From an uncultured Chloroflexia bacterium (GTDB lineage Bacteria > Chloroflexota > Limnocylindria > Limnocylindrales > CSP1-4), in NCBI GenBank assembly GCA_963813535.1, contig CAWEZH010000002.1:1664001-1728000 (forward strand): a DNA stretch of 64,000 nucleotides, read 5' to 3'. Positions 3,762-47,891 of this stretch are shown piece after piece (position 1 is the first letter of the stretch; the number at the start of each line of letters is the position of its first letter). The translations under genes were made by a program, and so were the position numbers. The notes beneath the pieces were generated by a model. The model saw only the letters and a program-made list of their open reading frames with translations. It searched no databases and was not told the origin of the DNA.

Positions 3762-4738
3762 GGGCCGCCGAAGAACTCGTCCATCGTGCCGGCCGTGCAG
3801 GACTCGGCCAGGCAATCGAGACCCCACGCGTCCTGGACGGTCCGCAACAGGCTGTAGTGGTCGTGTCGCTCGGCCGATCGGAAGCCCGCCGGCACGTCGG
3901 GTGACGCCACGATCGTGACGATGTGCCCACCGCCGGGATCCTCGCCGGCGTCCTCATCGAACGTGACCACGAGAAGCCCACCGGCCTTGAAGGGCTCGCT
4001 GTCGAGGATCTTCGGAACGAAGCCCGCCAGCCAGTGGTCGGCATTCCGGATCGGGCAGTCATGCGCCGAGTGGCACTGGTTGGGGATGATCAGCGAGTAG
4101 TTCGCATCGCCCGGGCGGAACGCGGTCAGGTCGACGAGGTCGGCGCACCGTGCGGGATCGTTCCGGATGCTGTCGAAGCTGATGGCCGGGGCGTGCTTCC
4201 GGCGGTATTCCCCTTTCCCGTCGCGACCGCCTTTGGCGCTGGTGCCGGCGAAGCAGTCGGGCGGGCGGTTCTCAGCGTACTCACGCCAGGTGCGGCCGCT
4301 GGCCTCGATCTGGTCGGCGACCGTCGGAGCGTCAAGGTCGTGGTCGTCGTTGTCGGTGACCCCGTGGGTCGAACCGCTGAACATGGCGAAGTAGTTCGGC
4401 TGCGAGGGGCGGGCGACACCGAAGGACTGCTCGGCCAGGCCGTACCGTCGGATCAGCCGATCGAAGTAGGGCGTGTCGTCCGCCTCGACGATGCGGTCGT
4501 AGTCCGTGTTCTCCAGCACGATGATCCACACGTACGGGAAGTCGGGCAGTCGGCTCGCTGCGCTCGGCGACGGGGGTGTGGAGGAGGGAGGCACGGACGG
4601 CGACCCGGTCGGTCCGACAGTGGGTGATGCCGGCGGCGTCGATGTCGACGGTGACGGTCCGACGCAACCGATCAGGATGCCGATCAGCAGCGTTGCGACT
4701 GCGACCAGAGTCCCTGGTCGCGACCCTCGGTCGCGCAT
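3758..4738 (-). CDS. Phosphoesterase/acid phosphatase family lipoprotein
   Basis: Signal peptide with Cys, Pro/Ser linker, motifs IIVLEN, PSQPNY, RKHAP, VTFDE, HYSLLRT. Confidence 0.85.
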   Translation of the reverse strand: MRDRGSRPGTLVAVATLLIGILIGCVGPSPSTSTPPASPTVGPTGSPSVPPSSTPPSPSAASRLPDFPYVWIIVLENTDYDRIVEADDTPYFDRLIRRYGLAEQSFGVARPSQPNYFAMFSGSTHGVTDNDDHDLDAPTVADQIEASGRTWREYAENRPPDCFAGTSAKGGRDGKGEYRRKHAPAISFDSIRNDPARCADLVDLTAFRPGDANYSLIIPNQCHSAHDCPIRNADHWLAGFVPKILDSEPFKAGGLLVVTFDEDAGEDPGGGHIVTIVASPDVPAGFRSAERHDHYSLLRTVQDAWGLDCLAESCTAGTMDEFFGGP

Positions 4739-4754
4739 GTCCCCCTTCTCGTCC

Positions 4755-35046: not shown

Positions 35047-37747
35047 TCAGTCTGGCGGCTGGACGACCAGCGTGCCGACCATCCCCGACTCGGCATGGCC
35101 CGGCACCGTGCACAGGATCCGGTAGGTGCCCGGATCGTCGATCCGGAACCTGATCCGCTGGGTCTGCCCCGGTCGCGCTGCCGCGTCGACGTTCGCGAGG
35201 CCCTCGGCTTCCCAGTCGTGGAAGACCGGGTCGTCGTTGCGGAATGACAGCGCCACCGTCGTGCCCGCCTCGACGGACAGGTCTGCCGGTTCGAATCGGA
35301 GATCGCGGGCGACCACCGACACCTGGCTCGCGCCCTCCTCGATCCAGCGATCCGCGGCCATCCCGAGGCCGGCGACCCCGAAGGCGGCGAGCGCCACCGC
35401 CACGAGGAACGAGGCTTCCCTGAGGCGGGCCACGCGCGCGCGACGGACGCGATGCTCTGCCTCGGGTCGTGCGTCGTAGGCGCGCAGCCGAAGAGCGTTC
35501 GCGACGACGGTGACCGAAGACAGTGCCATCGCACCCGCCGCCATCCCAGGTGACAGGGCGATGCCGAACGCCGGGATGAGGACCCCCATCGCGACGGGGA
35601 TCAGCACCACGTTGTAGGCGAACGCCCAGAAGAGGTTCTGGCGCACCGTCGTCATGGTCGCCCGCGACAGGCCGATCGCCGTCGGCACACCACGTGGGTC
35701 GGCGTGCATCAACGCGACCCGGGCCGTTTCGATCGCGATATCCGTGCCGGTCCCGATGGCGATGCCGACGTCGGCCTGCGCCAGCGCCGGAGCGTCGTTG
35801 ATCCCATCGCCCACCATCGCGACCGTCCGACCGCGGCCCTGGAGACGCCCGACGATGGACGCCTTGTCCTCAGGCCGGGCGTCCCCGACGACGCGGTGGG
35901 CGGGGATCCCCACCTGGCCCCCGACGGCCAGGGCGGTCGAGCGCGCATCGCCAGTCACCAGCCAGACCTCGATGCCGGCACGCGCCAGCTCACGGACGGC
36001 GGCCGCGGACTCGGCGCGGACCGGATCGGTGATCCCGACGACCCCGGCTGCCCGACCGTCGATCGCGACCGATGCGATGGTCCTGCCACTCTCGCCGGCG
36101 GCCGCGATCGCGGCCTCGAGCGGTTCCTGTTCCACGCCCTCCGCGACCAGCCAGCGGACGCTGCCGATCGCCACGTCGCGAGGCCCGTCGGCCGCATCGA
36201 CCGTTCCTCGGACACCACCCCCAGCGACGACCCCGATGTCGCGGACCGGGAGGAAGCCGAGCTCGCGCTTGTTCGCGTACGCGACGATCGCGGCGCCCAG
36301 AGGGTGCTCGCTCGCTCGCTCGACCGACGCGACCAGGTCGATGAGCGTCCGTTCGTCGGTGCCCGGGGCGGTCACGACCTCTCTGACTGTCGGTCGGCCG
36401 AGAGTCAGCGTCCCGGTCTTGTCGAAGACCACGGCGTCGATCCGCTCAGCACGTTCGAGCACGTCGCCGCCACGGATGAGGATCCCGGCCTCGGCGCCAC
36501 GACCGGTACCGACCATGACCGCCGCAGGCGTAGCGAGACCCATCGCGCACGGGCAGGCGATGACGACGACGCTGATGAACGCTGTGAGCGCGAGGGTCAG
36601 CCGCGGCTCCGGGCCGGCGAGGAACCAGATCGCGAACGTCGCCGTGGCCACGACCAGCACGATGGGTACGAACGCCTCGGCGATCCGATCGGCCAGGTGC
36701 TGGATCGGCGCCTTGCTGCCCTGCGCCCGGCGCACCGCGTCGACGATCCGTGCCAGGGCGGTGTCGTGGCCGACACGCGTCGCGCGCATCAGGAACGTGC
36801 CGGTCCGGTTCAGCGTCGCCCCCACGACCTCGCTGCCCGGCTCGGACCTCGACGGGCATCGGCTCGCCGGTCAGCATGCTGGCGTCCACGGCCGACGCGC
36901 CCTCGACGACCACCCCGTCGACCGGCACCTTCTCGCCGGGACGGACCCGCAGGAGGTCGCCGACGACGACACCCTCGAGTGGGACGTCGGTCTCGTGGCC
37001 GTCGGCGACGAGGCGCGCGGTGGTCGGCTGGAGGCCGATGAGACGGCGGATCGCCCCGGCCGTGCCGGCCTTGGCCCGGCTCTCGAGCCAGCGCCCGAGC
37101 AGGACCAGCCCGATGATGATCGTCGAGGCGTCGAAGTAGGTCTCCGGGTGGAGCCCGGCCTCGTGGATGGCCTCCGGGAAGAGCGTGACGCCGACGCTGT
37201 ACAGCCAAGCGGCCGTGGTGCCGACGGCGATCAACGTGTCCATGTTCGCGGTGCCGTGACGGAGCGCCCGCCACGCCGCGCGGTAGAAGCGGGCGCCGGC
37301 CACGAACTGGATCACGGTCGCGGGGATCAGGGCGATCCAGTTGATCGTCTCCATCGGCACGCGCGTCTGGGGGACGAACATCGCGATCATGATCCCGATG
37401 GCGACCGCGATCGACGCGACGGCCTGGCGGAGCAGCAGCCTCGCCTCCCGATCCCGCCGCGCATCGTCGACCGCCGCCTCGTCGACCAGCGAGGTGTTCG
37501 ACGGCTCGGTGGTCGTCTGCTGCTCCCGCACGTCGTAACCGGCCGCCTCGACCGCGGCGACGAACCGGTCGGGTCCGGTCACATCAGGGAGGTACCGGAT
37601 CGTCGCCTGCTCCGTGGCGAGATTGACCGTGGCCTCCTCGACACCATCGGTCGCGCGGAGGAACCGCTCGATGCGGTTCACGCAGGAGCCACACGTCATG
37701 CCCTCGATCGGCAGCTGGATCTCAGCGTGGGAGGTGCTGTTTGTCAT
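35047..37747 (-). CDS. copA: Cu(I)-translocating P1B-type ATPase with C-terminal cupredoxin domain (frameshift at ~36835-36840)
   Basis: GMTCGSC (HMA), TGE, CPC, DKTGT, SEHP, GDGIND, YN, MALSS. The C-terminal domain has HDW...[11 protein letters not shown]. The gene is split over ORFs 36446-37783 and 35047-36825. Confidence 0.9.
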
Positions 37748-37762
37748 ACTCCCAGGGAGTAT
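37746..37762. promoter_or_regulatory. CsoR-like operator overlapping the copA -10 box and start codon
   Basis: Perfect palindrome ATACTCCC-A-GGGAGTAT. Minus-strand -10 TATACT at 37758-37763. Confidence 0.7.
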
Positions 37763-37806
37763 ACCGTGGCGGCATGCCTGCACCCACGGGGCGCAGACTG
37801 GGCGTC

Positions 37807-38382
37807 ATGGCAGATCGCATCGTGACGGCCGTCCTCGACGGGATCGGAGCGCCGTTCCGGATCGCGGCCACGGAGCGTGGGATCGTGGCGGCCGGTTGGC
37901 AGCCTGACAACGACGTCTTCGAGGGTGAGCTCCGGGCACGGCTGCACCTCCCCGTCGTCGCCCTCGCCGATGCTCCCTCGGACGACCCCGCTGCGCGCGT
38001 CCTGCGGGCAGCGTTGCCGACCGTCGAGGCGATCCTCCAGAGCACCCCAGCCGACGGCCGTGACCTTCCCGTCGACCTCGCCGACCGGCCCGACTGGGAC
38101 CGGCGCGTGCTCGGCGAGGTCCGCCAGGTCGACTGGGGCCGAACGGCCAGCTACGGCGACATCGCGAAACGGGTCGGAGCACCGCGTGCGGCACGGGCGG
38201 TCGGTGGCGCCCTGGGCCGCAACCCGATCTCGCTGCTGATCCCGTGCCACCGGATCATCGCGGGCGACGGCACACTCGGTGGATACGGTGGGACCGGCTG
38301 GATCGACCGCGACCGGCAGCTGTCGCGCAAGGAGGCACTCCTGTTGCGCGAAGGCGTCACGGTGCCGAGGCGCGCGGTCTAG
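37807..38382 (+). CDS. ogt: Methylated-DNA--protein-cysteine methyltransferase
   Basis: SYGDIA, ARAVGGA, NPISLLIPCHRII. Confidence 0.92.
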   Translation: MADRIVTAVLDGIGAPFRIAATERGIVAAGWQPDNDVFEGELRARLHLPVVALADAPSDDPAARVLRAALPTVEAILQSTPADGRDLPVDLADRPDWDRRVLGEVRQVDWGRTASYGDIAKRVGAPRAARAVGGALGRNPISLLIPCHRIIAGDGTLGGYGGTGWIDRDRQLSRKEALLLREGVTVPRRAV

Positions 38383-38466
38383 ACTCCCCAGCGACCGCCC
38401 GTCACGTCGGTCATCCCCGGGTCATCGAGCAACGGTACGGCGCCGTCCGGGCGCCCTGGAGGTCGC

Positions 38467-40300
38467 ATGACGGCAGCCTCGGTGCCCGCCGCCCCGTCGA
38501 TGTTCTCCGTCTTCCGCAAGCGCGATTTCTCGCTGCTGTGGCTTGCCCAACTGATCTCGACCGCGGGCTCGGCGCTGACCGACCTGGCCGCGGGCATCTA
38601 CGTCTTCCAGGTGACGGGCTCGGCGCTCGCGGTCGGGCTGACGCTGATGGTGACGGCAATCCCGAGCCTCGTCGTGGGGCTGCTGGCGGGCGTCTATGTC
38701 GACCGGCACGATCGCAAGAAGATCCTCATCTGGACGTGCCTGATCCAGGCGGTGATCGTCGGGGCCATCGCGTTCGTGCTCGGCATGGACGCCATCGCGA
38801 TCCCAGGGCTGTACGCGCTATTGCTGCTGAATGCGGGCGTCAAGCAGTTCTTCGATCCGGCGCACGAGAGCCTCATCCCCGAGATGGCCAGCGACGAGGA
38901 GCTGGCGGCGGCCAACTCGTTCCTGTCGATCGCCTCTTTCGGGTCCACCGCCATCGGCTTCGCGGGCGCCGGGATCCTCGCCAGCATCGACCTGCGGGTT
39001 GCGTTCGTCATCGATTTCGATCTCGTTCGTCGTGTGCGCGCTCCTGATCTCCCTGATGGGGCGCTACCCGATGCCGATCCCGGAAGACGAGGCCAGCGTC
39101 AAGGTCATCGTCGACAACCTCAAGTCGGGGCTCGGCGCGCTGTTCGGGATCCAGGTTCTCCGTTCGCTGTTCTTCGTCGGCGCGCTGATGTTCTTCTCGT
39201 TCGGACTCTGGAACGTCCTTCTGCTGCCGATGTCGCTACGCGAGCTGGACGCGACCGAATTCGAATACGGCCTCCAGGAGGGGCTCACGTCGGTCGGTTT
39301 CGTGATCGGATCCTTCTTCATGGCGCGCTTCTCGGATCGCCTGCCGGAGTCGCTGTGGGTGTTCGTCGGCCTGATCGGGATGGGCGTCTGCGGGCTCGCG
39401 TATGCGGCGGCGACGTCGGTTCCCGTGGCCATCCTGCTGGTGATGTTCTCGGGCTTCTTCAACTCGCCGACATCGGTGGCCCGTTCCGTCCTGCTCCAGC
39501 GGAATACGCCACGCGAGCTTCGCGGCCGGGTCTTCTCCACCTACTACGTCATGCGCGACGTGATCTTCCTCTTCGGCATGGCCGGCGCGGGCCTGGCCGA
39601 CATCATCAACGTCAGGGTCATGATCGCGTTCGCATCGATCCTGCTGTTCGGAGCTGCGGCCTACGCCCTGGTGGCGCCCGGCCTTGGTCTCGGCTCGTTG
39701 CGCGCCGCACGCGCCAGGCTGGCGGGTGCTGCCGGCGCGGCAGGGCTTGCGGCGGCCTCGTTCCGGCCGGCCACGCTCGCCGACTTCGACCTCCTGGTGG
39801 GCAAACTGCCCACGTTCGCCCGGCTATCGGGCACCCAGCGCGAAGCATTCCTGCGCGATGCGAGCATCCGCGACGTGCCGGCGGGGACGCGGATCGTGGA
39901 GCACGGGGACACCGCATCGTCGGCGTATTTCATCCTCGCCGGGACCGCGACGGCCGGCATCCCCGAGGAGAACGGCTACCGCGGTCTCTCCACGATGCAG
40001 GAAGGCGACTTCTTCGGGGAGATCGCGGCCCTGACAGGCAACCCGCGGACCGCCGATGTCGTCGCCGACACGGACACGACGCTGCTCGAGGTGCCCGCCG
40101 ACGCGTTACGCGCCACGATGCCGGTGCCCGAGATCCGGCGGCTCGTGTACTCGACGCTGGAGTCCCGACTGCAACGGACCGAGGCGGCCGACCTGCCCCG
40201 TCTCGCCGGCCCGGACCAGGAGGCGTTGCGCGACCTGCGGACCCCACGACCCAACGTCGACGCCGCGCCAGGCTCGTCGCAGGGCGAGGCGACCTCCTGA
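38467..40300 (+). CDS. MFS transporter fused to a C-terminal cyclic nucleotide-binding domain (+1 frameshift at ~39015-39017)
   Basis: MFS motif A GVYVDRHDRK, ELRGRVFS, multiple TM helices, cNMP cassette GDFFGEIAALTGNPRTADV. Joins ORFs starting at 38467 and 38831-40300. Confidence 0.88.
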
Positions 40301-40410
40301 AAGGGTGTCTCCTAGCCGACACCGATCCGGTCGCGTCCGGGCTACGGAGGATGGGCGTCCGGGGCGTACAGTTGCACGCAGCACCGTCACCCGTCACGGA
40401 GGAATGACCG

Positions 40411-40608
40411 ATGAAGAAGATCAGGCTCCCCAAGGAGGGGCTGGTCGAGCCCGAGGAGGGGACCCGCGGGGGCGACGGGTTCATCGACGAGAACGACGTT
40501 GAAGGCCACGGCCTGCCGATCACCGCGCCGCCCAGCATCGGCCAGCACGGCCCGGGCCACGGCGGCGAAGTCACGCCGACCGACAGCGACGAGGACACGA
40601 CCGACTAG
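40411..40608 (+). CDS. 65-aa acidic peptide with ENDVEGH motif (candidate precursor peptide)
   Basis: SD GGAGG at 40398-40402, -10-like TACAGT at 40367-40372, GC-rich third codon positions, followed by a hairpin. Confidence 0.75.
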   Translation: MKKIRLPKEGLVEPEEGTRGGDGFIDENDVEGHGLPITAPPSIGQHGPGHGGEVTPTDSDEDTTD

Positions 40609-40638
40609 CCGACGCCGTTTCCATTACCGCTTCGACTG

Positions 40639-40660
40639 CCGCCCGGCACCAGCCGGGCGG
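40639..40660. terminator. Hairpin between the convergent peptide and S8 genes
   Basis: CCGCCCGGC-ACCA-GCCGGGCGG. Confidence 0.6.
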
Positions 40661-40667
40661 TCGTGAT

Positions 40668-41486
40668 TCAGGTCGGGGTCGACGCCGTCGCAGCCAGCAG
40701 CGCCTTGATCTCGAACGGGGAGGCCGTCGGATAGCGCGATCGGAGCCGCGCCGCCTGCCCGGCCAGATGCGGCGCCGCGAACGAGTTGCCCGTCGCGCGG
40801 ATGCGGCCGCCGTCCCGCCATGCCACGTCGACGTCCACGCCGAGTGCGCCGAACTCGACCGGGGGTGACGGGTTGTAGAACCACGTGTCGGGATCGGGCA
40901 GGTCGTGCGCGGCTACCGACACCACGCTTGCGAACAACGACGGGTACGACGGACCCGGGACGTTGTTCGCGGCACAGACCAGCAGCGTGTTCGCGAAGTA
41001 GGACCGGTCGGCGATGTCGTGGAAAGCCGCGAACATCGACTCGCTCCGCGACGACAGGCTCAGGTTGACGACCGCGATCCCCTCCCCGACCGCCCATTCG
41101 ATCGCCGCTGCGAGAGCGCGACCCTTGCCCCGGTTGTCGGCGCCGAGCATGCGGATCGACACGATGTCGGCGCCCTGCGCCACGCCCGCCACGATCCCGG
41201 CACACGCCGTCCCGTGGCCGACGAGGTCGCGCGGCTCGAGGTCGTCGACGACGTGGGCGTCCTCGCCGTCGAGGTCGACCCGCAGGTGGCGACCGATCCG
41301 GCCCGCCACGGCTGGGTGATCGCCGTCGACCCCGGAATCGACGACGGCGACCGTGACCCCACGACCGTCGGCGTCACCGAAGACCGTCGCCCGATCGAGG
41401 CGACCGAACGGGGCGTCGGGGCGCCCGAGCGATTCGCGGGCCCCGCCGGCGAACGCGTCACTCCATGCGGGGAGTAGCACGGTCAT
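40668..41486 (-). CDS. S8 subtilisin-family serine peptidase, cytoplasmic
   Basis: Triad motifs VVDSG, GHGTACAG, GNSFAAP and oxyanion AANN. No signal peptide. Confidence 0.92.
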   Translation of the reverse strand: MTVLLPAWSDAFAGGARESLGRPDAPFGRLDRATVFGDADGRGVTVAVVDSGVDGDHPAVAGRIGRHLRVDLDGEDAHVVDDLEPRDLVGHGTACAGIVAGVAQGADIVSIRMLGADNRGKGRALAAAIEWAVGEGIAVVNLSLSSRSESMFAAFHDIADRSYFANTLLVCAANNVPGPSYPSLFASVVSVAAHDLPDPDTWFYNPSPPVEFGALGVDVDVAWRDGGRIRATGNSFAAPHLAGQAARLRSRYPTASPFEIKALLAATASTPT

Positions 41487-42265
41487 CGGCCGTCCCCGTG
41501 GACGCCGCGCGACCCACCTCGATGCCGGAGCAGGGCATCGAGCCAGTCGACCACGAGATCGATCGACTCCGGATCGACGTCGCGCAGCGCCGCGATCTTG
41601 TCCACGAGGCGCCAGGTCTGGTCGTCGTCAGTGGCCGCCGCGGTCGTCGCGCGGGCGACGAGCGCATCGATCGCCGCGGGGTCGCGGCCACCGTCGTCCG
41701 CGTCGGCGAGCTCGCGCAGGCTCGCGCCGAGGATCGTCGCGGCGTCGCGCTCGATGTGCTGTCGGCCTACCGCCGACGCGATCACGGTCGCGATCGACGA
41801 GGCGACGTCGATGTCATGGAGGGAGAAGGTGCCGCGCCGGCCGTCGAGCGCCTCGAGGACGCCCAACGTCGCCCGCGAGTCGACGATCGGCACGGCCAGC
41901 AGCGACGAGGGCACGTATCCGGATGCCTCGGCGACGGATCGCTCGAATCGGGGATCCGCGGCGACGTCGGCGACGGCCAGGGGTTGGCCGGTCGTGAACA
42001 CGTAGCCCGCGATGCCGACCTCGGGCTCGATGGCCATGCCGACGATGTCGCCGGCCGCAGGCCCGGCGGCAGCCCGGAACACGAGCCGCCCGGTCAGCGG
42101 GTCGTACAGGGCGATGGACGCTGCCTGCGACTCGAGGGCAGTCGCTGCCACCCGGGCCAGCGAGACGACGAGGTCGTCGCCTGCGGGGGCAAGCTGATCG
42201 GCGACGTTCAGGCGGTGGGCGATGGCGTCGAGCACACGCTCGACGTCGCCCGGCTCGAGGCTCAT
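41483..42265 (-). CDS. GAF domain protein
   Basis: ASIALYD, LVFRAAAG, GIAGYV, DVAADPRF, SLLAVPI, LGVLEAL. ATGA overlap with the S8 gene. Confidence 0.9.
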   Translation of the reverse strand: MSLEPGDVERVLDAIAHRLNVADQLAPAGDDLVVSLARVAATALESQAASIALYDPLTGRLVFRAAAGPAAGDIVGMAIEPEVGIAGYVFTTGQPLAVADVAADPRFERSVAEASGYVPSSLLAVPIVDSRATLGVLEALDGRRGTFSLHDIDVASSIATVIASAVGRQHIERDAATILGASLRELADADDGGRDPAAIDALVARATTAAATDDDQTWRLVDKIAALRDVDPESIDLVVDWLDALLRHRGGSRGVHGDGR

Positions 42266-42551
42266 CTGCGTGCGGCCATCGCCGGGCGACCGGCGTCGAT
42301 CCGCCCGTCGTCGACGCCGCCGAAGAGGCGACACGCACGCAGCGCCTCGCGCTTCCGGCCGGCTTCGGGCGACGCCACCACGACCCCATCGTACGCGGCG
42401 GGGACCGCCGCCAGCCGGTTGGATTCTGTTGCCAATCCGCACCAGTTGCCGCCAACGTCGGCTGGCCGACATGGGACGATCCCCGCCTGGCGCTACTATC
42501 CCTATCTGCGATCAACCACCCCGCACCGTCCAGCGGGCTCCGGAGGGGAAT

Positions 42552-43922
42552 ATGTCGTTCGTCGTCTCACATCGGTCGCGACCCGTCGGGTCCGGGCTGA
42601 TGGCGCTCTTCACTGCCGTCGCGCTCCTGGTCGCGCTGGCCGGTCCAGCGACCGCAACGTTCACGAAGCCGTACACGGCGACGTGGTTGTCGGGCTCCAC
42701 GCCAGTCGCCAATCCACCCAACCAGATCAACCTGCCGGGCGGCAGTACGACGGCCGTGCTGCGGATCAAGAACTACGCGTTCGTCTCGCTGGGTTCGGCA
42801 AACATCACCCCGCCGAGCGGCTACACGCTTGGTGGTGGCTCGCTCGCGCCCGCGGTCGGGACAGCCACGCTGGCCGGCAATACGCTCCAGCTTCGGAACC
42901 TGTCACTGGCGCCGGGGGCGTCCGTCAACGTCACGATCAACCTCAGCACGTCCTGTCTCAGCAGCCCCGGTAGCCCATGGGCTCTCACCGTGAGGGAGGG
43001 CGGCGGCTTTACGGGCACCACGTTCGTTCGCAAGGACGGCACGGTCGCCCCGAAGACGGTCGCCGCAGGCTCGTCCTGCCGGCTTCGCTTCGGGAACCAG
43101 CCGAACACGACGGAGACCGGAGCGTTGATCCGGGACGGCCACGACAGTACCGGCAACCCGGTCAAGGTCGAGATCTACGATCCGGGAACCGGGCTGACGG
43201 TCTCCTCCACCGCAACCGTCACATTGACCCTGCAGTCCAACCCGGCGGGAGGCACCCTGAGCGGGGGCTCCGTGAACGCCGTGGGAGGCGTGGCGAAGTT
43301 CCCGTCATTGTCGATCGGCACGCCCGGCCCATACATACTCAAAGCGAGCAGCCCGGCTGCGTCGAATACTCCCTTGTCGGATGAGTTCAACGTTGCGAAC
43401 AATGTCGCGACGTGTGCCAGTACGGGCTGCAGCTTCACCGACGCCCAGGGTCAGAACAGCTACAAGACCAAGCCGCAGCAAGGCGCAGCTGGCGCGACGT
43501 GGGCCAGCACGCTCAACCTGCCGGGTCTGAAGGTCTCGTGCGATTTCGCCCCGTTCGATTACCCGGACGCACGCCAGCCGAACGCGGTCTGGTACGTGTA
43601 CGACGACGGGGCGACCGGCTCGGCCAAGGTCAACACGATCGTCATCGACAAGACCGTCGTGCAGGAGACGCCGGAGAACGGCACATCCAAATATCGCGTC
43701 TGCTACTCCTCACCTGATCCGTTCAAGGATCGAACGGGGCAGTGGGCACAACCGGATCCGTGGAGCAACGGACCATCGGCGTACTTCGGCGGGACCTGGT
43801 TCACCGGATTGCTGCCGGACTGCTCTGACGGCGTGGCGCCCTGCGTCCTGAAGTGGACGGCCCAGAGCGGCGACCGGATCGGGACGTTCCTCACGCCGCC
43901 GGGCGACCCGAACTACCGCTAG
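42552..43922 (+). CDS. Secreted Thr/Gly/Ser-rich beta-sandwich protein of unknown function
   Basis: SD GGAGG, hydrophobic signal-like segment, beta-rich composition with several Cys. Confidence 0.75.
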   Translation: MSFVVSHRSRPVGSGLMALFTAVALLVALAGPATATFTKPYTATWLSGSTPVANPPNQINLPGGSTTAVLRIKNYAFVSLGSANITPPSGYTLGGGSLAPAVGTATLAGNTLQLRNLSLAPGASVNVTINLSTSCLSSPGSPWALTVREGGGFTGTTFVRKDGTVAPKTVAAGSSCRLRFGNQPNTTETGALIRDGHDSTGNPVKVEIYDPGTGLTVSSTATVTLTLQSNPAGGTLSGGSVNAVGGVAKFPSLSIGTPGPYILKASSPAASNTPLSDEFNVANNVATCASTGCSFTDAQGQNSYKTKPQQGAAGATWASTLNLPGLKVSCDFAPFDYPDARQPNAVWYVYDDGATGSAKVNTIVIDKTVVQETPENGTSKYRVCYSSPDPFKDRTGQWAQPDPWSNGPSAYFGGTWFTGLLPDCSDGVAPCVLKWTAQSGDRIGTFLTPPGDPNYR

Positions 43923-43961
43923 GCGAGCGTCGCCCGCCAGCCGCGCATCGGTCCTCGACCA

Positions 43962-43992
43962 GCACCGCCCCGAGCTCCGGCCGGGGCGGTGC
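43962..43992. terminator. GC-rich hairpin downstream of the secreted-protein gene
   Basis: GCACCGCCCCG...CGGGGCGGTGC (11-bp stem). Confidence 0.55.
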
Positions 43993-44048
43993 CGTGTGTG
44001 GTCCGGCATCGCGCGGGCCGTTATGCCCCTGGGTCGTAGACTCAGTCC

Positions 44049-47000
44049 GTGATGGTCTGCGAGGCATGCGGAACAGAGAACGTCGAGGATGCGCGCCTCT
44101 GCGTCGATTGCGCCACGCCGCTCGCCCTCGATCACGCAACGGCCGAGACCCGGCGGTTCGCCACCGTCGTCCAGACGGACCTGAAGGGTTCGACCGCGCT
44201 CGGCGAGCGGCTCGACGCAGAATTGCTGCGCGAGGTCCTCACCCGGTACTTCGACGAGATGCGCTTCGTCTACGAGTCGCACGGCGGGACGATCGAGAAG
44301 ATCATCGGTGATGCCATCGTCGCGGTCTTCGGGATCCGAGGCCCGCGCGTGGACGACGCGATCCGCGCGGTCGAGGCTGCGGCCGAGAGCCTGGCCGTCC
44401 TTGCCGACCTCAACGACGAGTTCGAACGGACCTGGGGCGTCCGACTGGTGGTCCGGACCGGCGTCAGCACCGGCGACGTCGTCGTAGGGGAGGCACTGGC
44501 GGGGCAGCACGTCCTGACCGGGGACACGATGCGGATCTCGTCGGCCATGGAGCAGAACGCGCCGCCGCTCGGGATCCTGCTGTCCGGATCGACCTACGCG
44601 CTCGTGCAGGAGCAGGTGGAGGTCGAACCCGTGCCGCCGGTCACGCCGAAGGGCATGACGGTCGAGATCCCGGCACACCGCGTCGTTGCCGTCTATCCGC
44701 GCGAGGCGCCCGGATCCGCTCCCACCGGCGAAGGTGTCACCAGGACCACATCCCGGGAGAGCCGCAAGACCGTCACCCTGGTCTTCGCCGATCCCAAGCC
44801 GACGTCGCTCACCGACCGACCGCCGTCGGCAGAGGCATTGCGCGACGTGATGACGCGCTATTTCGACGCCATGCAGGCGGCGCTGGCTCATCACGGGGGA
44901 ACGATCGAGAAGTTCATCGGCGATGCGGTCATGGCCGTCTACGGGCTGCCGGTCCGCCACGAGGACGACGCCATCCGCGCGATCCGGGCGGCGGCAGACA
45001 TGCAGGCGGCCCTGCCCGGTCTCAACCGCTCGTTCCGCGAGCGGTGGGGACTGGAGTTGCAGAACCACATCGGGGTGAACACCGGTGAGGTGATCGCCGG
45101 CGACGCCTCGACCGGTCAGCGCCTCGTCACCGGCGACGCCGTGAACACGGCCGCGCGGCTCGAGCAGGCGGCAGGGCCCGGCGAGATCATCCTCGGCGAG
45201 CTGACCTATCGCCTGGCGCGCGAGGATATCGACGTCGAGGAGGTCCCGCCGCTCTCCCTGAAGGGCAAGGCGGAACCGGTCAGGGCGTATCGATTCGTCG
45301 GCCTCCGGGAACGACCCATCGCGGCCGAGTCGGAGTCGGCGCCGTTCGTCGGGCGCGACGCAGAGATGGCACTCCTCACGTCGACACTCACTGAGCTCTC
45401 GGAGCGTCCAGGCGCCGCTCTGCTGACGGTCGTCGGCGACGCCGGGGTCGGCAAGTCACGCTTGATCAGGGAGTTCGCCCTTGCCGCCTCTCCTCGGGCG
45501 CACGTGGTCCGCGGGCGATGCCTGCCATATGGCGACGGCATCACGTTCTGGCCGATCGCGGAGATCGTGCGCGGTGTGGCCGAGATCGCCTCGGACGACA
45601 CCCTCGAGGCGGCGATCGCCAAGGTCGACCTCCTGGTCGAGGATCTCGGCCTGGCGGAGGCCGATCGGGCCGCCGTCGTCGACCGAGTCGCGTCGATGTT
45701 GGGCCTCACGAGTGGCCAGTTCCCGGTGGCGGAGTTGTTCTGGGGCATCCGGAAGCTCCTGGAGGCCCTGGCCCGCGAAGAACCGCTCGTGATGGTGATC
45801 GACGACATCCACGCCGCCGAGACCACGCTGCTGGACCTGCTGGATCACCTCGCCGAGACGGTCGAGACGGCGCCCATCCTGATGGTCTGTTCGGCGCGCC
45901 ATGAGCTGGTCGATCGACACGCCGAGTGGTCGGAGTCCCACCGCGATCGGCTGATCATCCTCGAACCGCTGTCCGACGACGATTCCGGGCGCATGATCGA
46001 CCAGTTGCTGGGCAACAGCGGACTCGACCGGGGGATGGTCGCACGGGTCGTTGCCGCGGCGGAGGGGAACCCGCTCTTCGTCGAGCAGATGGTATCCATG
46101 CTGGTCGACAATGGCACGCTTCGACGTGACGGGGATCGGTGGGTCGCATCAGGTCTGTCGGCGGACCTCGTCGTGCCGCCGACGATCCACGCCCTTCTGG
46201 CGGCCCGCCTCGACGACCTGGCCGAGGACGAGCGGGAGGTCGTCGAGCCCGCCTCCGTGGTGGGCCTGGTCTTCGCCGAGGATGCCGTGGAGCACCTCAT
46301 CGAGGAGCCGCGGCGACCGGCCGTGCCGATCCACCTGCGATTGCTCATGCGCAAGCAATTCATCCGCCCGGATCGGCTCGATGAGGAGGATGCATATCGA
46401 TTCGGTCATCAGCTGATCCGCGACACGGCGTACGGGAGCCTCCTGAAGCGCGAGCGGGTCGTGCTGCACCGGCGGTTCGTCGATTGGGCCGATGAGGTCA
46501 ACCGGGAACGAGGTCGCGAGACCGAGTACGAGGAGATCCTGGGTTACCACCTCGAGCAGGCCTACCGGTACCGCACCGAGCTCGGACCCCTCGATGATGA
46601 CGCCGTGGAGTTGGGCGCGCGGGCGTCGACGCGACTCGCGTCGGCCGGTCGACGCGCCCTCGGGCGCGGCGACTTCCCGGCGGCAGCGAACCTGCTCGAA
46701 CGCGCCGCGGGGGTCCTCGACGACGCGGACACGGGACGTCCCAGACTGCTCGTCGGAGCGGGCGAGGCCTACATGGAGATCGGTGAGTTCGCCCGGGCTG
46801 ACGACCTCCTCGTCAAGGCCGGGACCGCCGCCGCGGTGGTCGGCGAGCGATCGGTGGTCACGACGTCCGAGCTGATGCGGCTGCAGCTCCGCCTGCGCTC
46901 CGAGGCGGCCACGTCGATCGAAGATGTGATGCGACAGACCCTCGCCGCCATCGGTGGTCTCGAGGAGATCGATGATGCCGGCGCTCTGGCCCGGGCGTGG

Positions 47001-47891
47001 AGGCTCCTCGAGCTCGCACACGGCATCAGCGGGCAGTACCGGGCGGCCGGCGAGGCGAACGCCAAGGCCACGGAGTACGCCCGACTGGCAGGCGACCACG
47101 TGCTCGAGATGCGCCTGTACGCCTCGGCTGCGCTGGTTGCGCCGAACGGGCCGATGCCCGTTGCCGAGGGCATCGCACGGTGCGAGGAGCTGCTGGGGAT
47201 CGCCGAGCGCGATCGCCGCGCGCAGGGCATGACGCTCGGCGCGCTGGCACACCTCCGGGCCATGCACGGGGACTTCGATCGAGCGCGCGATGACTACCGT
47301 CGCGGGCGAGCCATCCTGGAGGATCTCGGTCTCCGATTTGACGCCTCCACGATGTCGCTCGACTCCGGGCGAGTGGAACTGTTGGCCGGGGACCCCCGGG
47401 CAGCTGAGGCCGAGCTCCGCAAGGACTACGAGTCCCTGGATGCCATCGGCGAGCGGAACTACATCTCCACGATCGCCGGCTTGCTGGCAGAGGCTCTGTA
47501 TCAGCAGGGCCTGTTCGACGAGGCCGGCCATTTCGCCGCGTTCTGTGAGGAGGTCGCGGCTCCCTCCGATGGGATCTCGCAGTCGCTGTGGCGAGGCGTC
47601 CGAGGGAAGCTCCTCGCGCGCGACGGTGCCTATGACGAAGGCATCGAGCTCGCTGCATCGGGCGTGCGAGAGATGCAGTCGTCCGACGACATCGAGGGGC
47701 AAGCGAACGCGCTCGTGTTCCTGGCCGAGGCGCAGGGCGCGGCCGGCCGATTCGAGCTCGCAGCCGAGTCGGCATCCCGCGCGCGTCGTCTCTTCGAGGC
47801 GAAGGGCAACGTCATCTCGGCGGGGCGCGTCGACGAGCTGGTCTCGTTCCTGGGCCCGACTCCCTCGGAGTCGGTCACGACGTCGGCTTAG
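44049..47891 (+). CDS. Class III adenylate/guanylate cyclase: Zn-ribbon, two cyclase domains, STAND ATPase, TPR-like region
   Basis: CEAC...CVDC, TDLKGST/EKIIGD, FAD/EKFIGD/GDAVNTAARL, Walker A GDAGVGKS, Walker B MVIDD, GNPLF, helical C-terminus. Confidence 0.92.
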   Translation: MMVCEACGTENVEDARLCVDCATPLALDHATAETRRFATVVQTDLKGSTALGERLDAELLREVLTRYFDEMRFVYESHGGTIEKIIGDAIVAVFGIRGPRVDDAIRAVEAAAESLAVLADLNDEFERTWGVRLVVRTGVSTGDVVVGEALAGQHVLTGDTMRISSAMEQNAPPLGILLSGSTYALVQEQVEVEPVPPVTPKGMTVEIPAHRVVAVYPREAPGSAPTGEGVTRTTSRESRKTVTLVFADPKPTSLTDRPPSAEALRDVMTRYFDAMQAALAHHGGTIEKFIGDAVMAVYGLPVRHEDDAIRAIRAAADMQAALPGLNRSFRERWGLELQNHIGVNTGEVIAGDASTGQRLVTGDAVNTAARLEQAAGPGEIILGELTYRLAREDIDVEEVPPLSLKGKAEPVRAYRFVGLRERPIAAESESAPFVGRDAEMALLTSTLTELSERPGAALLTVVGDAGVGKSRLIREFALAASPRAHVVRGRCLPYGDGITFWPIAEIVRGVAEIASDDTLEAAIAKVDLLVEDLGLAEADRAAVVDRVASMLGLTSGQFPVAELFWGIRKLLEALAREEPLVMVIDDIHAAETTLLDLLDHLAETVETAPILMVCSARHELVDRHAEWSESHRDRLIILEPLSDDDSGRMIDQLLGNSGLDRGMVARVVAAAEGNPLFVEQMVSMLVDNGTLRRDGDRWVASGLSADLVVPPTIHALLAARLDDLAEDEREVVEPASVVGLVFAEDAVEHLIEEPRRPAVPIHLRLLMRKQFIRPDRLDEEDAYRFGHQLIRDTAYGSLLKRERVVLHRRFVDWADEVNRERGRETEYEEILGYHLEQAYRYRTELGPLDDDAVELGARASTRLASAGRRALGRGDFPAAANLLERAAGVLDDADTGRPRLLVGAGEAYMEIGEFARADDLLVKAGTAAAVVGERSVVTTSELMRLQLRLRSEAATSIEDVMRQTLAAIGGLEEIDDAGALARAWRLLELAHGISGQYRAAGEANAKATEYARLAGDHVLEMRLYASAALVAPNGPMPVAEGIARCEELLGIAERDRRAQGMTLGALAHLRAMHGDFDRARDDYRRGRAILEDLGLRFDASTMSLDSGRVELLAGDPRAAEAELRKDYESLDAIGERNYISTIAGLLAEALYQQGLFDEAGHFAAFCEEVAAPSDGISQSLWRGVRGKLLARDGAYDEGIELAASGVREMQSSDDIEGQANALVFLAEAQGAAGRFELAAESASRARRLFEAKGNVISAGRVDELVSFLGPTPSESVTTSA

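Follow-up and report, generated by a model that had tools for sequence, protein, structure and literature searches.

A small acidic peptide with a conserved DVEGH motif beside a subtilisin-like protease and cyclic-nucleotide sensor genes in Limnocylindria: a candidate protease substrate

Multi-copy peptide precursors cut by S8 (subtilisin-like) proteases are known from yeast, where Kex2 processes alpha-factor, and from the cyanobactins, where the precursor PatE is accompanied by PatA and PatG. The closest working analogue of the locus described here is the pair QhpE/QhpC from the maturation of quinohemoprotein amine dehydrogenase. QhpE, a subtilisin-like protease of small size that has no signal peptide and stays in the cytoplasm, cleaves a co-encoded small precursor before export (PMC7876137). 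In the intracellular subtilisins (ISPs) the active site is spanned by their own N-terminal LIPY/F peptide, the proline of which holds the scissile bond where it cannot be reached, the pro-peptide motif being defined as [LVI]-[IFLV]-P-[YFH] (PMC6220982). The subject of the present analysis is a peptide gene of 65 codons that converges on an S8 protease gene in a 64,000-nucleotide stretch of an uncultured Limnocylindria genome (contig CAWEZH010000002.1, positions 1,664,001 to 1,728,000), hereafter the window, in whose numbering all positions are given unless another locus is named.

Limnocylindria occur commonly in soil; to our knowledge few or none of them have been cultured, and almost nothing is known about their signalling. 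An earlier sequence-only reading of the window had singled out the peptide for a precursor-like layout and had proposed either maturation by the protease alone or a role as protease inhibitor. That interpretation is partly supported by the work reported below. Outside its scope lay a Crp-like operator, a GAF-domain partner of the protease, an MFS transporter gene with a cyclic-nucleotide-binding (cNMP) domain, and relatives of the peptide with many repeats. The resulting set is unusual in joining a conserved peptide of no known family, with a five-residue motif unvaried across 32 sequences and an operator of its own, to a protease and to modules of three types that sense cyclic nucleotides (Crp, GAF, and the cNMP domain on an MFS pump), with all of which it is co-inherited.

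Coding evidence and control elements of the peptide gene

The translation of the peptide frame is exactly that given by the sequence-only reading, and an in-frame stop one codon before the ATG leaves M1 as the only possible start. An open frame by itself is weak evidence in the window, which has a GC content of 70% and in which 36000-45000 is overlapped by 71 open reading frames (ORFs) of 40 aa or more, and this commonness of long chance ORFs (71 in 9 kb) would suit the view that the frame is a chance opening in GC-rich intergenic DNA and no gene. The frame was nevertheless taken as coding because of its composition, its mode of divergence and its homologues. Its GC content at the first, second and third codon positions is 0.70, 0.455 and 0.955, against third-position values (GC3) of 0.81-0.88 in the neighbouring genes. 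Among 24 orthologues taken from genomes (276 pairs) the median pairwise ratio of non-synonymous to synonymous substitution rates (dN/dS) is 0.35, compared with 0.18 for the S8 gene. The motif codons are kept despite synonymous change: those for D29, V30, G32, H33, P36, P40-41 and G51-52 have a proportion of non-synonymous differences (pN) of 0 at synonymous proportions (pS) of 0.08-1.4, and that for E31 has a pN of 0.03. For the peptides of the window genome (G000) and its closest relative (G173) pN/pS is 0.38, but with 5 changes that are non-synonymous and 4 that are synonymous the numbers are too small to speak for or against a relaxation of selection after the loss of crp. With 72 homologues from a single-sequence search, 593 from a profile search, and a promoter, ribosome-binding site and hairpin that are all conserved, the chance-frame explanation retains virtually no probability and, as far as sequence evidence goes, is already refuted. 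On these comparisons the ORF is a real, conserved gene under selection.

The 72 homologues are 61-99 aa long and all hypothetical or without a name; the few labelled ones are from Limnocylindrales or Chloroflexota metagenome-assembled genomes. The 593 proteins were obtained with a 51-member profile at E <= 0.001. At the same threshold an exhaustive search of representatives gave 38 matches, among them six long proteins (P0084, P0088, P0098, P0099, P0105 and P0106); the two that were inspected, P0088 and P0105, were rejected as relatives, being unrelated repeat proteins without the motif. In an alignment of 32 sequences P7, DVEGHG (residues 29-34), P36, P40-41 and G51-52 are invariant and the segments LPKEGLVEPE, TAPPS and HGGE nearly so; of all features of the family D-V-E-G-H is the best conserved. 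The conservation of the motif in homologues, on which the sequence-only reading had staked its proposal, is thereby borne out. The division into leader, core and acidic tail was not: the GLPxTAPPS and PGHGGE segments of the proposed core, with pN ~0, are as conserved as the proposed leader, and it is in the tail and in two linkers (residues 16-24 and 44-48) that the sequences vary.

The peptide has a pI of 4.4 and a net charge of -10; Gly and Pro account for 19 of its 65 residues, His for three, only one residue is aromatic and none is Cys. An AlphaFold2 model (predicted local distance difference test, pLDDT, 64.8; predicted template modelling score, pTM, 0.16) has no secondary structure, and the peptide is predicted to be intrinsically disordered. 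No Pfam or NCBIfam model rose above noise for the peptide and five of its relatives, and a Protein Atlas search, with a best score of 0.78, led to clusters without names and gave no lead. Full-text literature searches, judged by title and abstract, found no publication on peptides with a DVEGH or DTEGH motif and nothing joining Limnocylindria and subtilisin; the family is undescribed. The suggested association of DVE[G/A]H motifs with clusters for ribosomally made peptides that are modified after translation (RiPPs) found no backing in this literature, nor was a modifying enzyme present nearby. A Pup-like modifier, considered in view of HGGE, was rejected, as PF03136 (PafA/Dop) had no match in the window's genome, which is 92.9% complete, and did match a control genome; moreover, the GGQ/GGE of Pup is C-terminal, whereas the HGGE of the peptide is internal.

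Many relatives end in DDDVEGHRRR, while the window peptide falls in a sub-group without this second, C-terminal DVEGH. Longer, fused forms were searched for with two matches. P0108 was discarded as a fused form, since it looks like a run-together frame composed of an MFS C-terminus, the first half of the peptide and an out-of-frame tail. P0109, a 235-aa metagenome protein, has six D(D)DVEGH motifs as well as DVQGH and DTEGH variants, separated by basic spacers rich in Ala, Lys and Arg; it contains no recognisable domain and no enzyme domain. The window's own genome (3.28 Mb, 92.9% complete) has a single copy of the peptide gene. The motif search over this genome that the sequence-only reading had suggested was run as D[VTI]E[GA]H on the six-frame translation and gave 11 matches (DVEGH alone 6, against 1.4 expected). 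It recovered the peptide, the only one of the 11 to sit in a short frame with coding-like GC3, and brought up no paralogue.

The region upstream was compared in an alignment of the 150 nt before the 24 orthologous peptide genes. All 24 regions contain the core TGTC-N8-GACA of a palindrome which in the window starts 5 nt past the point where the upstream MFS gene stops. Each of the 15/15 long loci (up to 12 kb) has this palindrome a single time, always before the peptide gene, and it is missing from the locus of the congener G041, which is without the peptide. It is the only zero-mismatch site of the window, mononucleotide shuffles of which give 0.5 sites per 64 kb. The -10-like box pointed out earlier reappears as TAnnnT in every one of the 24 loci, at 51-54 nt from the palindrome centre and 42-67 nt from the start codon. 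If this hexamer occupies -12 to -7, the palindrome would be centred near -65 of the putative start site and thus upstream of the core promoter, where activators bind; it is a candidate Crp-family operator. A sigma-70 consensus scan found no promoter at the locus because there is no -35 match. The Shine-Dalgarno sequence reported for the gene was recovered, and a purine-rich block is found at its place in the 24 aligned regions. The downstream hairpin, also reported earlier (CCGCCCGGC, loop, GCCGGGCGG), has a comparable GC hairpin of -23 to -31 kcal/mol in 24/24 loci and likely acts as a two-way terminator without a T tract; the missing T tract accounts for the failure of a consensus scan to find a terminator at the locus.

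Contigs from four soil or rhizosphere metatranscriptome runs, each from a different study, cover the peptide ORF nearly end to end at 95-99% identity (Table 1), and the family is apparently expressed. In these four runs no contig was found over 40200-40388 and only short pieces on the start of the S8 gene; as neither absence nor strand nor the ends of a transcript can be read from contigs, we claim no transcript boundary. Many contigs of runs X2, X8 and X10, sometimes deep (up to 164 in X8), match only the 40 nt at 40471-40510 that encode FIDENDVEGHGL and diverge on both sides, so that other motif-bearing genes are also present in those libraries and seem to be well represented there.

The S8 protease, its GAF partner and their linkage to the peptide

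The convergence of the peptide gene on an S8 gene was confirmed. The triad residues D50, H91 and S235 of the S8 protein and its oxyanion N175 are invariant in 20 sequences, as would be expected of an active enzyme. Its N-terminus, judged by reading the sequence, is not signal-peptide-like and carries a conserved LPAW extension, in which (as xLPAW) only P-A-W is invariant in the 20 sequences. The best solved relative is subtilisin BPN' (E 3e-21), and the PDB matches include 2xrm, 2x8j, 2wv7 and 7y6m at E ~1e-16 to 1e-17. Scores against curated families all lie under the cut-offs: 110.4 bits for mycosin (TIGR03921; cut-off 278.75), 100.9 bits for QhpE (NF049966, the second-best NCBIfam; cut-off 165) and 25.6 bits for the PatA family (cut-off 421). 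The loop after the oxyanion Asn (residues 172-182, ~40941-40973, minus strand) is about six residues shorter than in BPN'. It aligns with the S1 loop of BPN' (residues 155-167), which lines the S1 pocket. In S8 proteins paired with EGH peptides this loop reads AANNVP[GA]-[PA]SYP, and in those paired with EGQ peptides (G101 and G152) SASN-x-PG-xx-SYP, with a one-residue insertion; the contrast is a hint that motif type and S1 loop may co-vary. An uncontrolled complex prediction for S8 with the peptide scored 0.26 and 0.03 against a mark of 0.32 and is evidence neither way. The start of the GAF gene was placed at M70 (position 42265), because it is only from about residue 70 of the long ORF onwards that orthologues align.

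The gene order MFS-cNMP > peptide > < S8 < GAF (< Crp) was found in every locus with enough flank, namely in 7/7 peptide-bearing genomes of the genus and in 16/17 species-representative loci, the 17th of which stops at a contig end. A Crp gene comes next after GAF in 14 loci, given as L010-L014, L016-L021 and L023-L026; L022 and L015 end too early. Since all these loci come from relatives, exceptions were sought in five congeners without a peptide match. Four of the five have neither the S8 (E <= 1e-20) nor the GAF gene (E <= 1e-10). In G041 the MFS-cNMP gene (69% identity) abuts crp, and the whole block of peptide, palindrome, S8 and GAF is absent. In G101 (L033, C27) the order on one strand is palindrome, a 42-aa peptide, MFS-cNMP, Crp (51%), GAF (40%) and S8 (59%). 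This genome had been regarded as a counter-example having S8 and GAF without a peptide, which was withdrawn because the DDTEGQ peptide stands behind the same palindrome.

When the class was searched with the G101 peptide, matches were obtained in 9/201 genomes at 11 loci, seven of which were inspected (left out were G101 itself, two duplicates and one unpublished genome). Four of the seven (L037, L039, L040 and L041, from G153, G057, G075 and G006 in other families of the class) have Crp, the palindrome, a protein with 6-7 DD(T/V)EGH repeats, and GAF; S8 is present in three and the fourth ends inside GAF. The tandem units are 12-18 aa long, and the repeat protein lies between crp and GAF-S8. 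Two more loci are partial versions: one, at the end of a contig, has Crp, the palindrome and a peptide with three motifs, and the other a DTEGQ peptide convergent with S8-GAF; sister-lineage peptides overall have 2-7 DD(V/T)EG(H/Q) repeats. L042 (G013), with no motif ORF, palindrome or neighbour match, was treated as a chance match. A second palindrome just upstream of crp in L037 and L039 suggests crp autoregulation. A degenerate codon pattern for DD-x-EGH, run over 401 genomes of the phylum, matched in all but one of the 16 genomes that make up class family f4 (15 of 16); among the matches listed, those of six f4 genomes and of G074 (family f1) include tandem clusters of 4-7, matches elsewhere were mostly single, and a reversed control pattern gave 0-2 per genome. 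The association with S8 genes expected by the sequence-only reading thus held: the two are adjacent wherever the flank suffices, lost together in G041 and kept together in rearranged loci. That peptide, operator and S8-GAF stay together through rearrangement, loss and motif amplification argues for more than inherited synteny. These genome comparisons establish the reality of the gene, the conservation of its control elements and its joint gain, loss and rearrangement with S8 and GAF.

The system is trimmed in the window's genome, with one motif instead of two or more, crp deleted and the MFS gene frameshifted. Compared with three congeners, a run of T in the MFS-cNMP gene is longer by one T at ~39015-39017, which splits what is a single frame in other loci into 38467.. 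and 38831..40300; this may be a real mutation or a homopolymer assembly error. In a pairwise blastp the crp remnant has 55% identity over 29 aa with the Crp of G041 (E 2e-8). No intact Crp was found at the window locus or at the colinear place in G173 (L034), and the best Crp paralogue of the genome, 52% identical, is located elsewhere (C2:948897-949568). Despite the loss of crp and the frameshift in the MFS gene, the palindrome is perfect and peptide, S8 and GAF are intact.

Scanned against Pfam, the neighbours in 35-48 kb gave MFS with cNMP, an MGMT-like protein, a copper ATPase, S8, GAF, one protein of no family and a cyclase-STAND-TPR protein, and among these no known RiPP tailoring enzyme, in line with the earlier remark that no modifying enzyme is adjacent; none was recognisable in this interval. 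The copper-type ATPase lies 2.6 kb upstream, and one is also found beside the variant locus of G101; its overlapping frames are a second apparent frameshift in the window. Relatives of the 457-aa protein, which is encoded divergently from GAF-S8, are present in L011, L013, L014, L016 and L018. The gene for the cyclase-STAND-TPR protein, 3.4 kb from the peptide gene and syntenic in L011, L014, L016 and L018, is a possible local source of cyclic nucleotide.

Table 1. Positions of the peptide gene, its control elements, the neighbouring genes and matching RNA contigs
Feature	Position	Strand	Remarks
Peptide gene	40411..40608	+	65 aa, acidic, predicted disordered, one DVEGH motif
Palindrome GTGTC-N8-GACAC, candidate Crp-family operator	40305..40322	.	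core TGTC-N8-GACA at 40306-40321
-10-like hexamer TACAGT	40367..40372	+	TAnnnT in 24/24 loci
Ribosome-binding site GGAGGA	40399..40404	+	6 nt before ATG
GC-rich hairpin	40639..40660	.	9 bp, 4-nt loop, between the convergent peptide and S8 genes
S8 subtilisin-like protease	40668..41486	-	272 aa; Pfam Peptidase_S8 (PF00082), E 3e-29
GAF-domain protein	41483..42265	-	260 aa; Pfam GAF, E 1.3e-14; stop overlaps S8 start by 4 nt
crp remnant	42262..42435	-	57 codons, ~29 N-terminal residues recognisable
MFS transporter with C-terminal cNMP-binding domain	38467..40300	+	Pfam MFS_1, MFS_3, cNMP_binding; frameshifted
Copper-type P-type ATPase	35047..37783	-	HMA, E1-E2, hydrolase, C-terminal cupredoxin; frames 36446..37783 and 35047..36825
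457-aa protein	42549..43922	+	signal-peptide-like N-terminus; no Pfam/NCBIfam match
1280-aa protein	44049..47891	+	two nucleotidyl cyclase domains, STAND/AAA_16 NTPase, TPR repeats
RNA contig, 207 nt	40399-40605		4 differences
RNA contig, 240 nt	40391-40630		13 differences
RNA contig, 165 nt	40445-40609		1 difference
RNA contig, 87 nt	40401-40487		1 difference
42-aa variant peptide of G101	L033, 4508..4636	-	two DDTEGQSFKAR units, own AGGAG; palindrome 4737-4752

Possible roles of the peptide

Since in soil Chloroflexota the peptide is always found with a cytoplasmic S8 protease and cyclic-nucleotide sensor genes, it is probably the dedicated target of that protease. The fuller reading that we tentatively put foremost, and which in our judgement is a little more apt to fail than to hold, is that the peptide, under the control of Crp, serves the GAF-partnered cytoplasmic S8 as a dedicated substrate or precursor which is recognised at DVEGH and possibly exported by the MFS protein. 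A Crp-family regulator on TGTC-N8-GACA, upstream of a promoter without a -35 element, would switch on a short single-gene transcript; the S8 protein would be made together with the GAF sensor protein from their overlapping genes, would recognise the acidic motif D-V-E-G-H (in general form D(V/T)EG(H/Q)) and would cut at or near it; and the fragment or fragments, possibly once the adjacent cNMP-gated MFS pump has exported them, would act as signal or effector. The parts of this scheme that we infer are binding, cleavage and its site, control by cyclic nucleotide, and export. Cleavage of the peptide at its motif would make the locus a simple peptide maturation system that could be rebuilt in the laboratory, and a rare example of a GAF-regulated subtilase. 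We consider it doubtful, if attractive, that the scheme extends to a whole unrecognised peptide signalling system of soil Chloroflexota, cyclic-nucleotide-gated and relying on a protease only, in which DVEGH peptides would be the cargo, switched on by Crp, cut by GAF-S8 and exported by cNMP-MFS. Such a system would be a bacterial counterpart of the Kex2-processed repeat pheromones, with each step wired to one second messenger.

Several points weigh against the substrate reading. Cleavage, binding and export were seen neither here nor in the literature. At P1 subtilisins usually favour hydrophobic residues, so that His or Gln in this position would be out of the ordinary; MFS pumps are not known to carry peptides of 30 residues. 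The strong conservation of GLPxTAPPS and PGHGGE after the motif means that a multi-motif binding protein fits at least as well as a precursor whose remainder is discarded. With crp deleted and the MFS frame broken while peptide, operator, S8 and GAF are intact, these two partners would be dispensable here. The contrast in the S1 loop rests on two EGQ-type S8 proteins, possibly of sister lineages. Every locus belongs to a single class of Chloroflexota, and part of the synteny is therefore shared ancestry. Finally, RNA libraries can hold DNA, and the contigs show neither strand nor transcript ends.

The same linkage evidence would be explained if the peptide were a regulator of the protease, that is, a disordered pseudo-substrate, inhibitor or adaptor that would sit on S8 (or on GAF) through DVEGH and GLPxTAPPS and restrain a protease dangerous to the cytoplasm until a cyclic-nucleotide signal arrives. 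A binding protein would typically show what is seen here, namely separate conserved linear motifs, variable linkers and no predicted structure; multi-headed inhibitors, too, have tandem repeats, and the invariant prolines by the motif recall the LIPY/F peptide of intracellular subtilisins as described in PMC6220982. An inhibitor would, however, be expected in the transcription unit of its protease, whereas the peptide has an activator-type promoter of its own and is convergent with S8; the peptides of G101 and G152 share only the acidic xEG(H/Q) and are without the proline-rich part; and the binding of peptide to S8 is itself a proposal drawn from the sequences. We therefore regard a regulator as rather unlikely; were the peptide to restrain the protease, this would be a new way of controlling intracellular subtilisins. 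A role apart from the protease, as an acidic, His-bearing, disordered buffer for Cu, Ni or Zn or as a stress protein, induced by cyclic nucleotide and neighbouring S8 and GAF through co-regulation, would find support in the invariant Asp, Glu, His and Gly of DVEGH and HGGE, in the charge of -10 and three His, and in the copper-type ATPase upstream and beside the G101 variant. A cut between V and E would also give an N-terminal E-G-H, that is, the X-X-His pattern of an amino-terminal copper and nickel site (ATCUN), an inference of ours. This role is unlikely, since the EGQ variants are without the His, the peptide gene was lost with S8 and GAF and not with the ATPase, and no known metal-binding family matches.

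Even less room is left for a classical RiPP precursor, in which an enzyme encoded at another place would modify the core and S8 would remove the leader; we hold this to be very improbable. The size of the peptide, its position next to S8 and a transporter, the resemblance of the multi-repeat relatives to multi-core precursors, and the presence of the leader peptidases QhpE and, weakly, PatA among the curated-family matches of S8 would fit such a precursor; S8 and MFS, which are adjacent and co-inherited, would in this reading be the putative leader peptidase and exporter. These points are set against a 35-48 kb interval with no co-encoded modifying enzyme, and there is none in the conserved locus between those genes that tblastn identified, the other ORFs there not having been family-scanned. 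The putative core is conserved and not hypervariable, so that the usual pattern of a conserved leader and variable core is missing, and S8 scores far under the cut-offs for QhpE and PatA. The peptide has one aromatic residue, and the lack of Cys in 65 residues excludes the Cys-dependent classes (lanthipeptide, sactipeptide, thiopeptide).

Comparison with described systems

Measured against QhpE/QhpC, the locus is without the radical-SAM enzyme QhpD, the flavoprotein QhpG and the dehydrogenase subunits; the transporter is of the MFS type and not an ABC exporter, and the peptide contains no Cys and has no similarity to QhpC. With the ISPs of Bacillus and Planococcus the S8 protein shares a putative cytoplasmic location and a short, conserved, proline-bearing N-terminal extension. 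Its L-L-P-A-W, with Ala in the fourth position, departs from the ISP motif, and the ISPs have neither a GAF partner nor a dedicated small-peptide gene. The likeness to alpha-factor and PatE is one of architecture only and concerns the sister lineages, where 6-7 near-identical, motif-headed units stand beside S8. The window peptide has a single motif, there is no heterocyclase, macrocyclase or conserved dibasic site, the cleavage of DVEGH repeats by S8 is putative, and the match to PatA is 25.6 against 421 bits.

On the side of regulation the comparison is with activator sites of the CRP/FNR type. The half-site here is TGTC, where the E. coli CRP consensus has TGTGA; the centre lies near -65 of the putative start site, and the candidate operator has lost its cognate crp in the window's genome. 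Like CRP/FNR activator sites, it is a 16-bp inverted repeat with TGT-N10-ACA as its outer bases, it precedes a promoter without a -35 match, and a Crp-family gene stands in the locus of the relatives.

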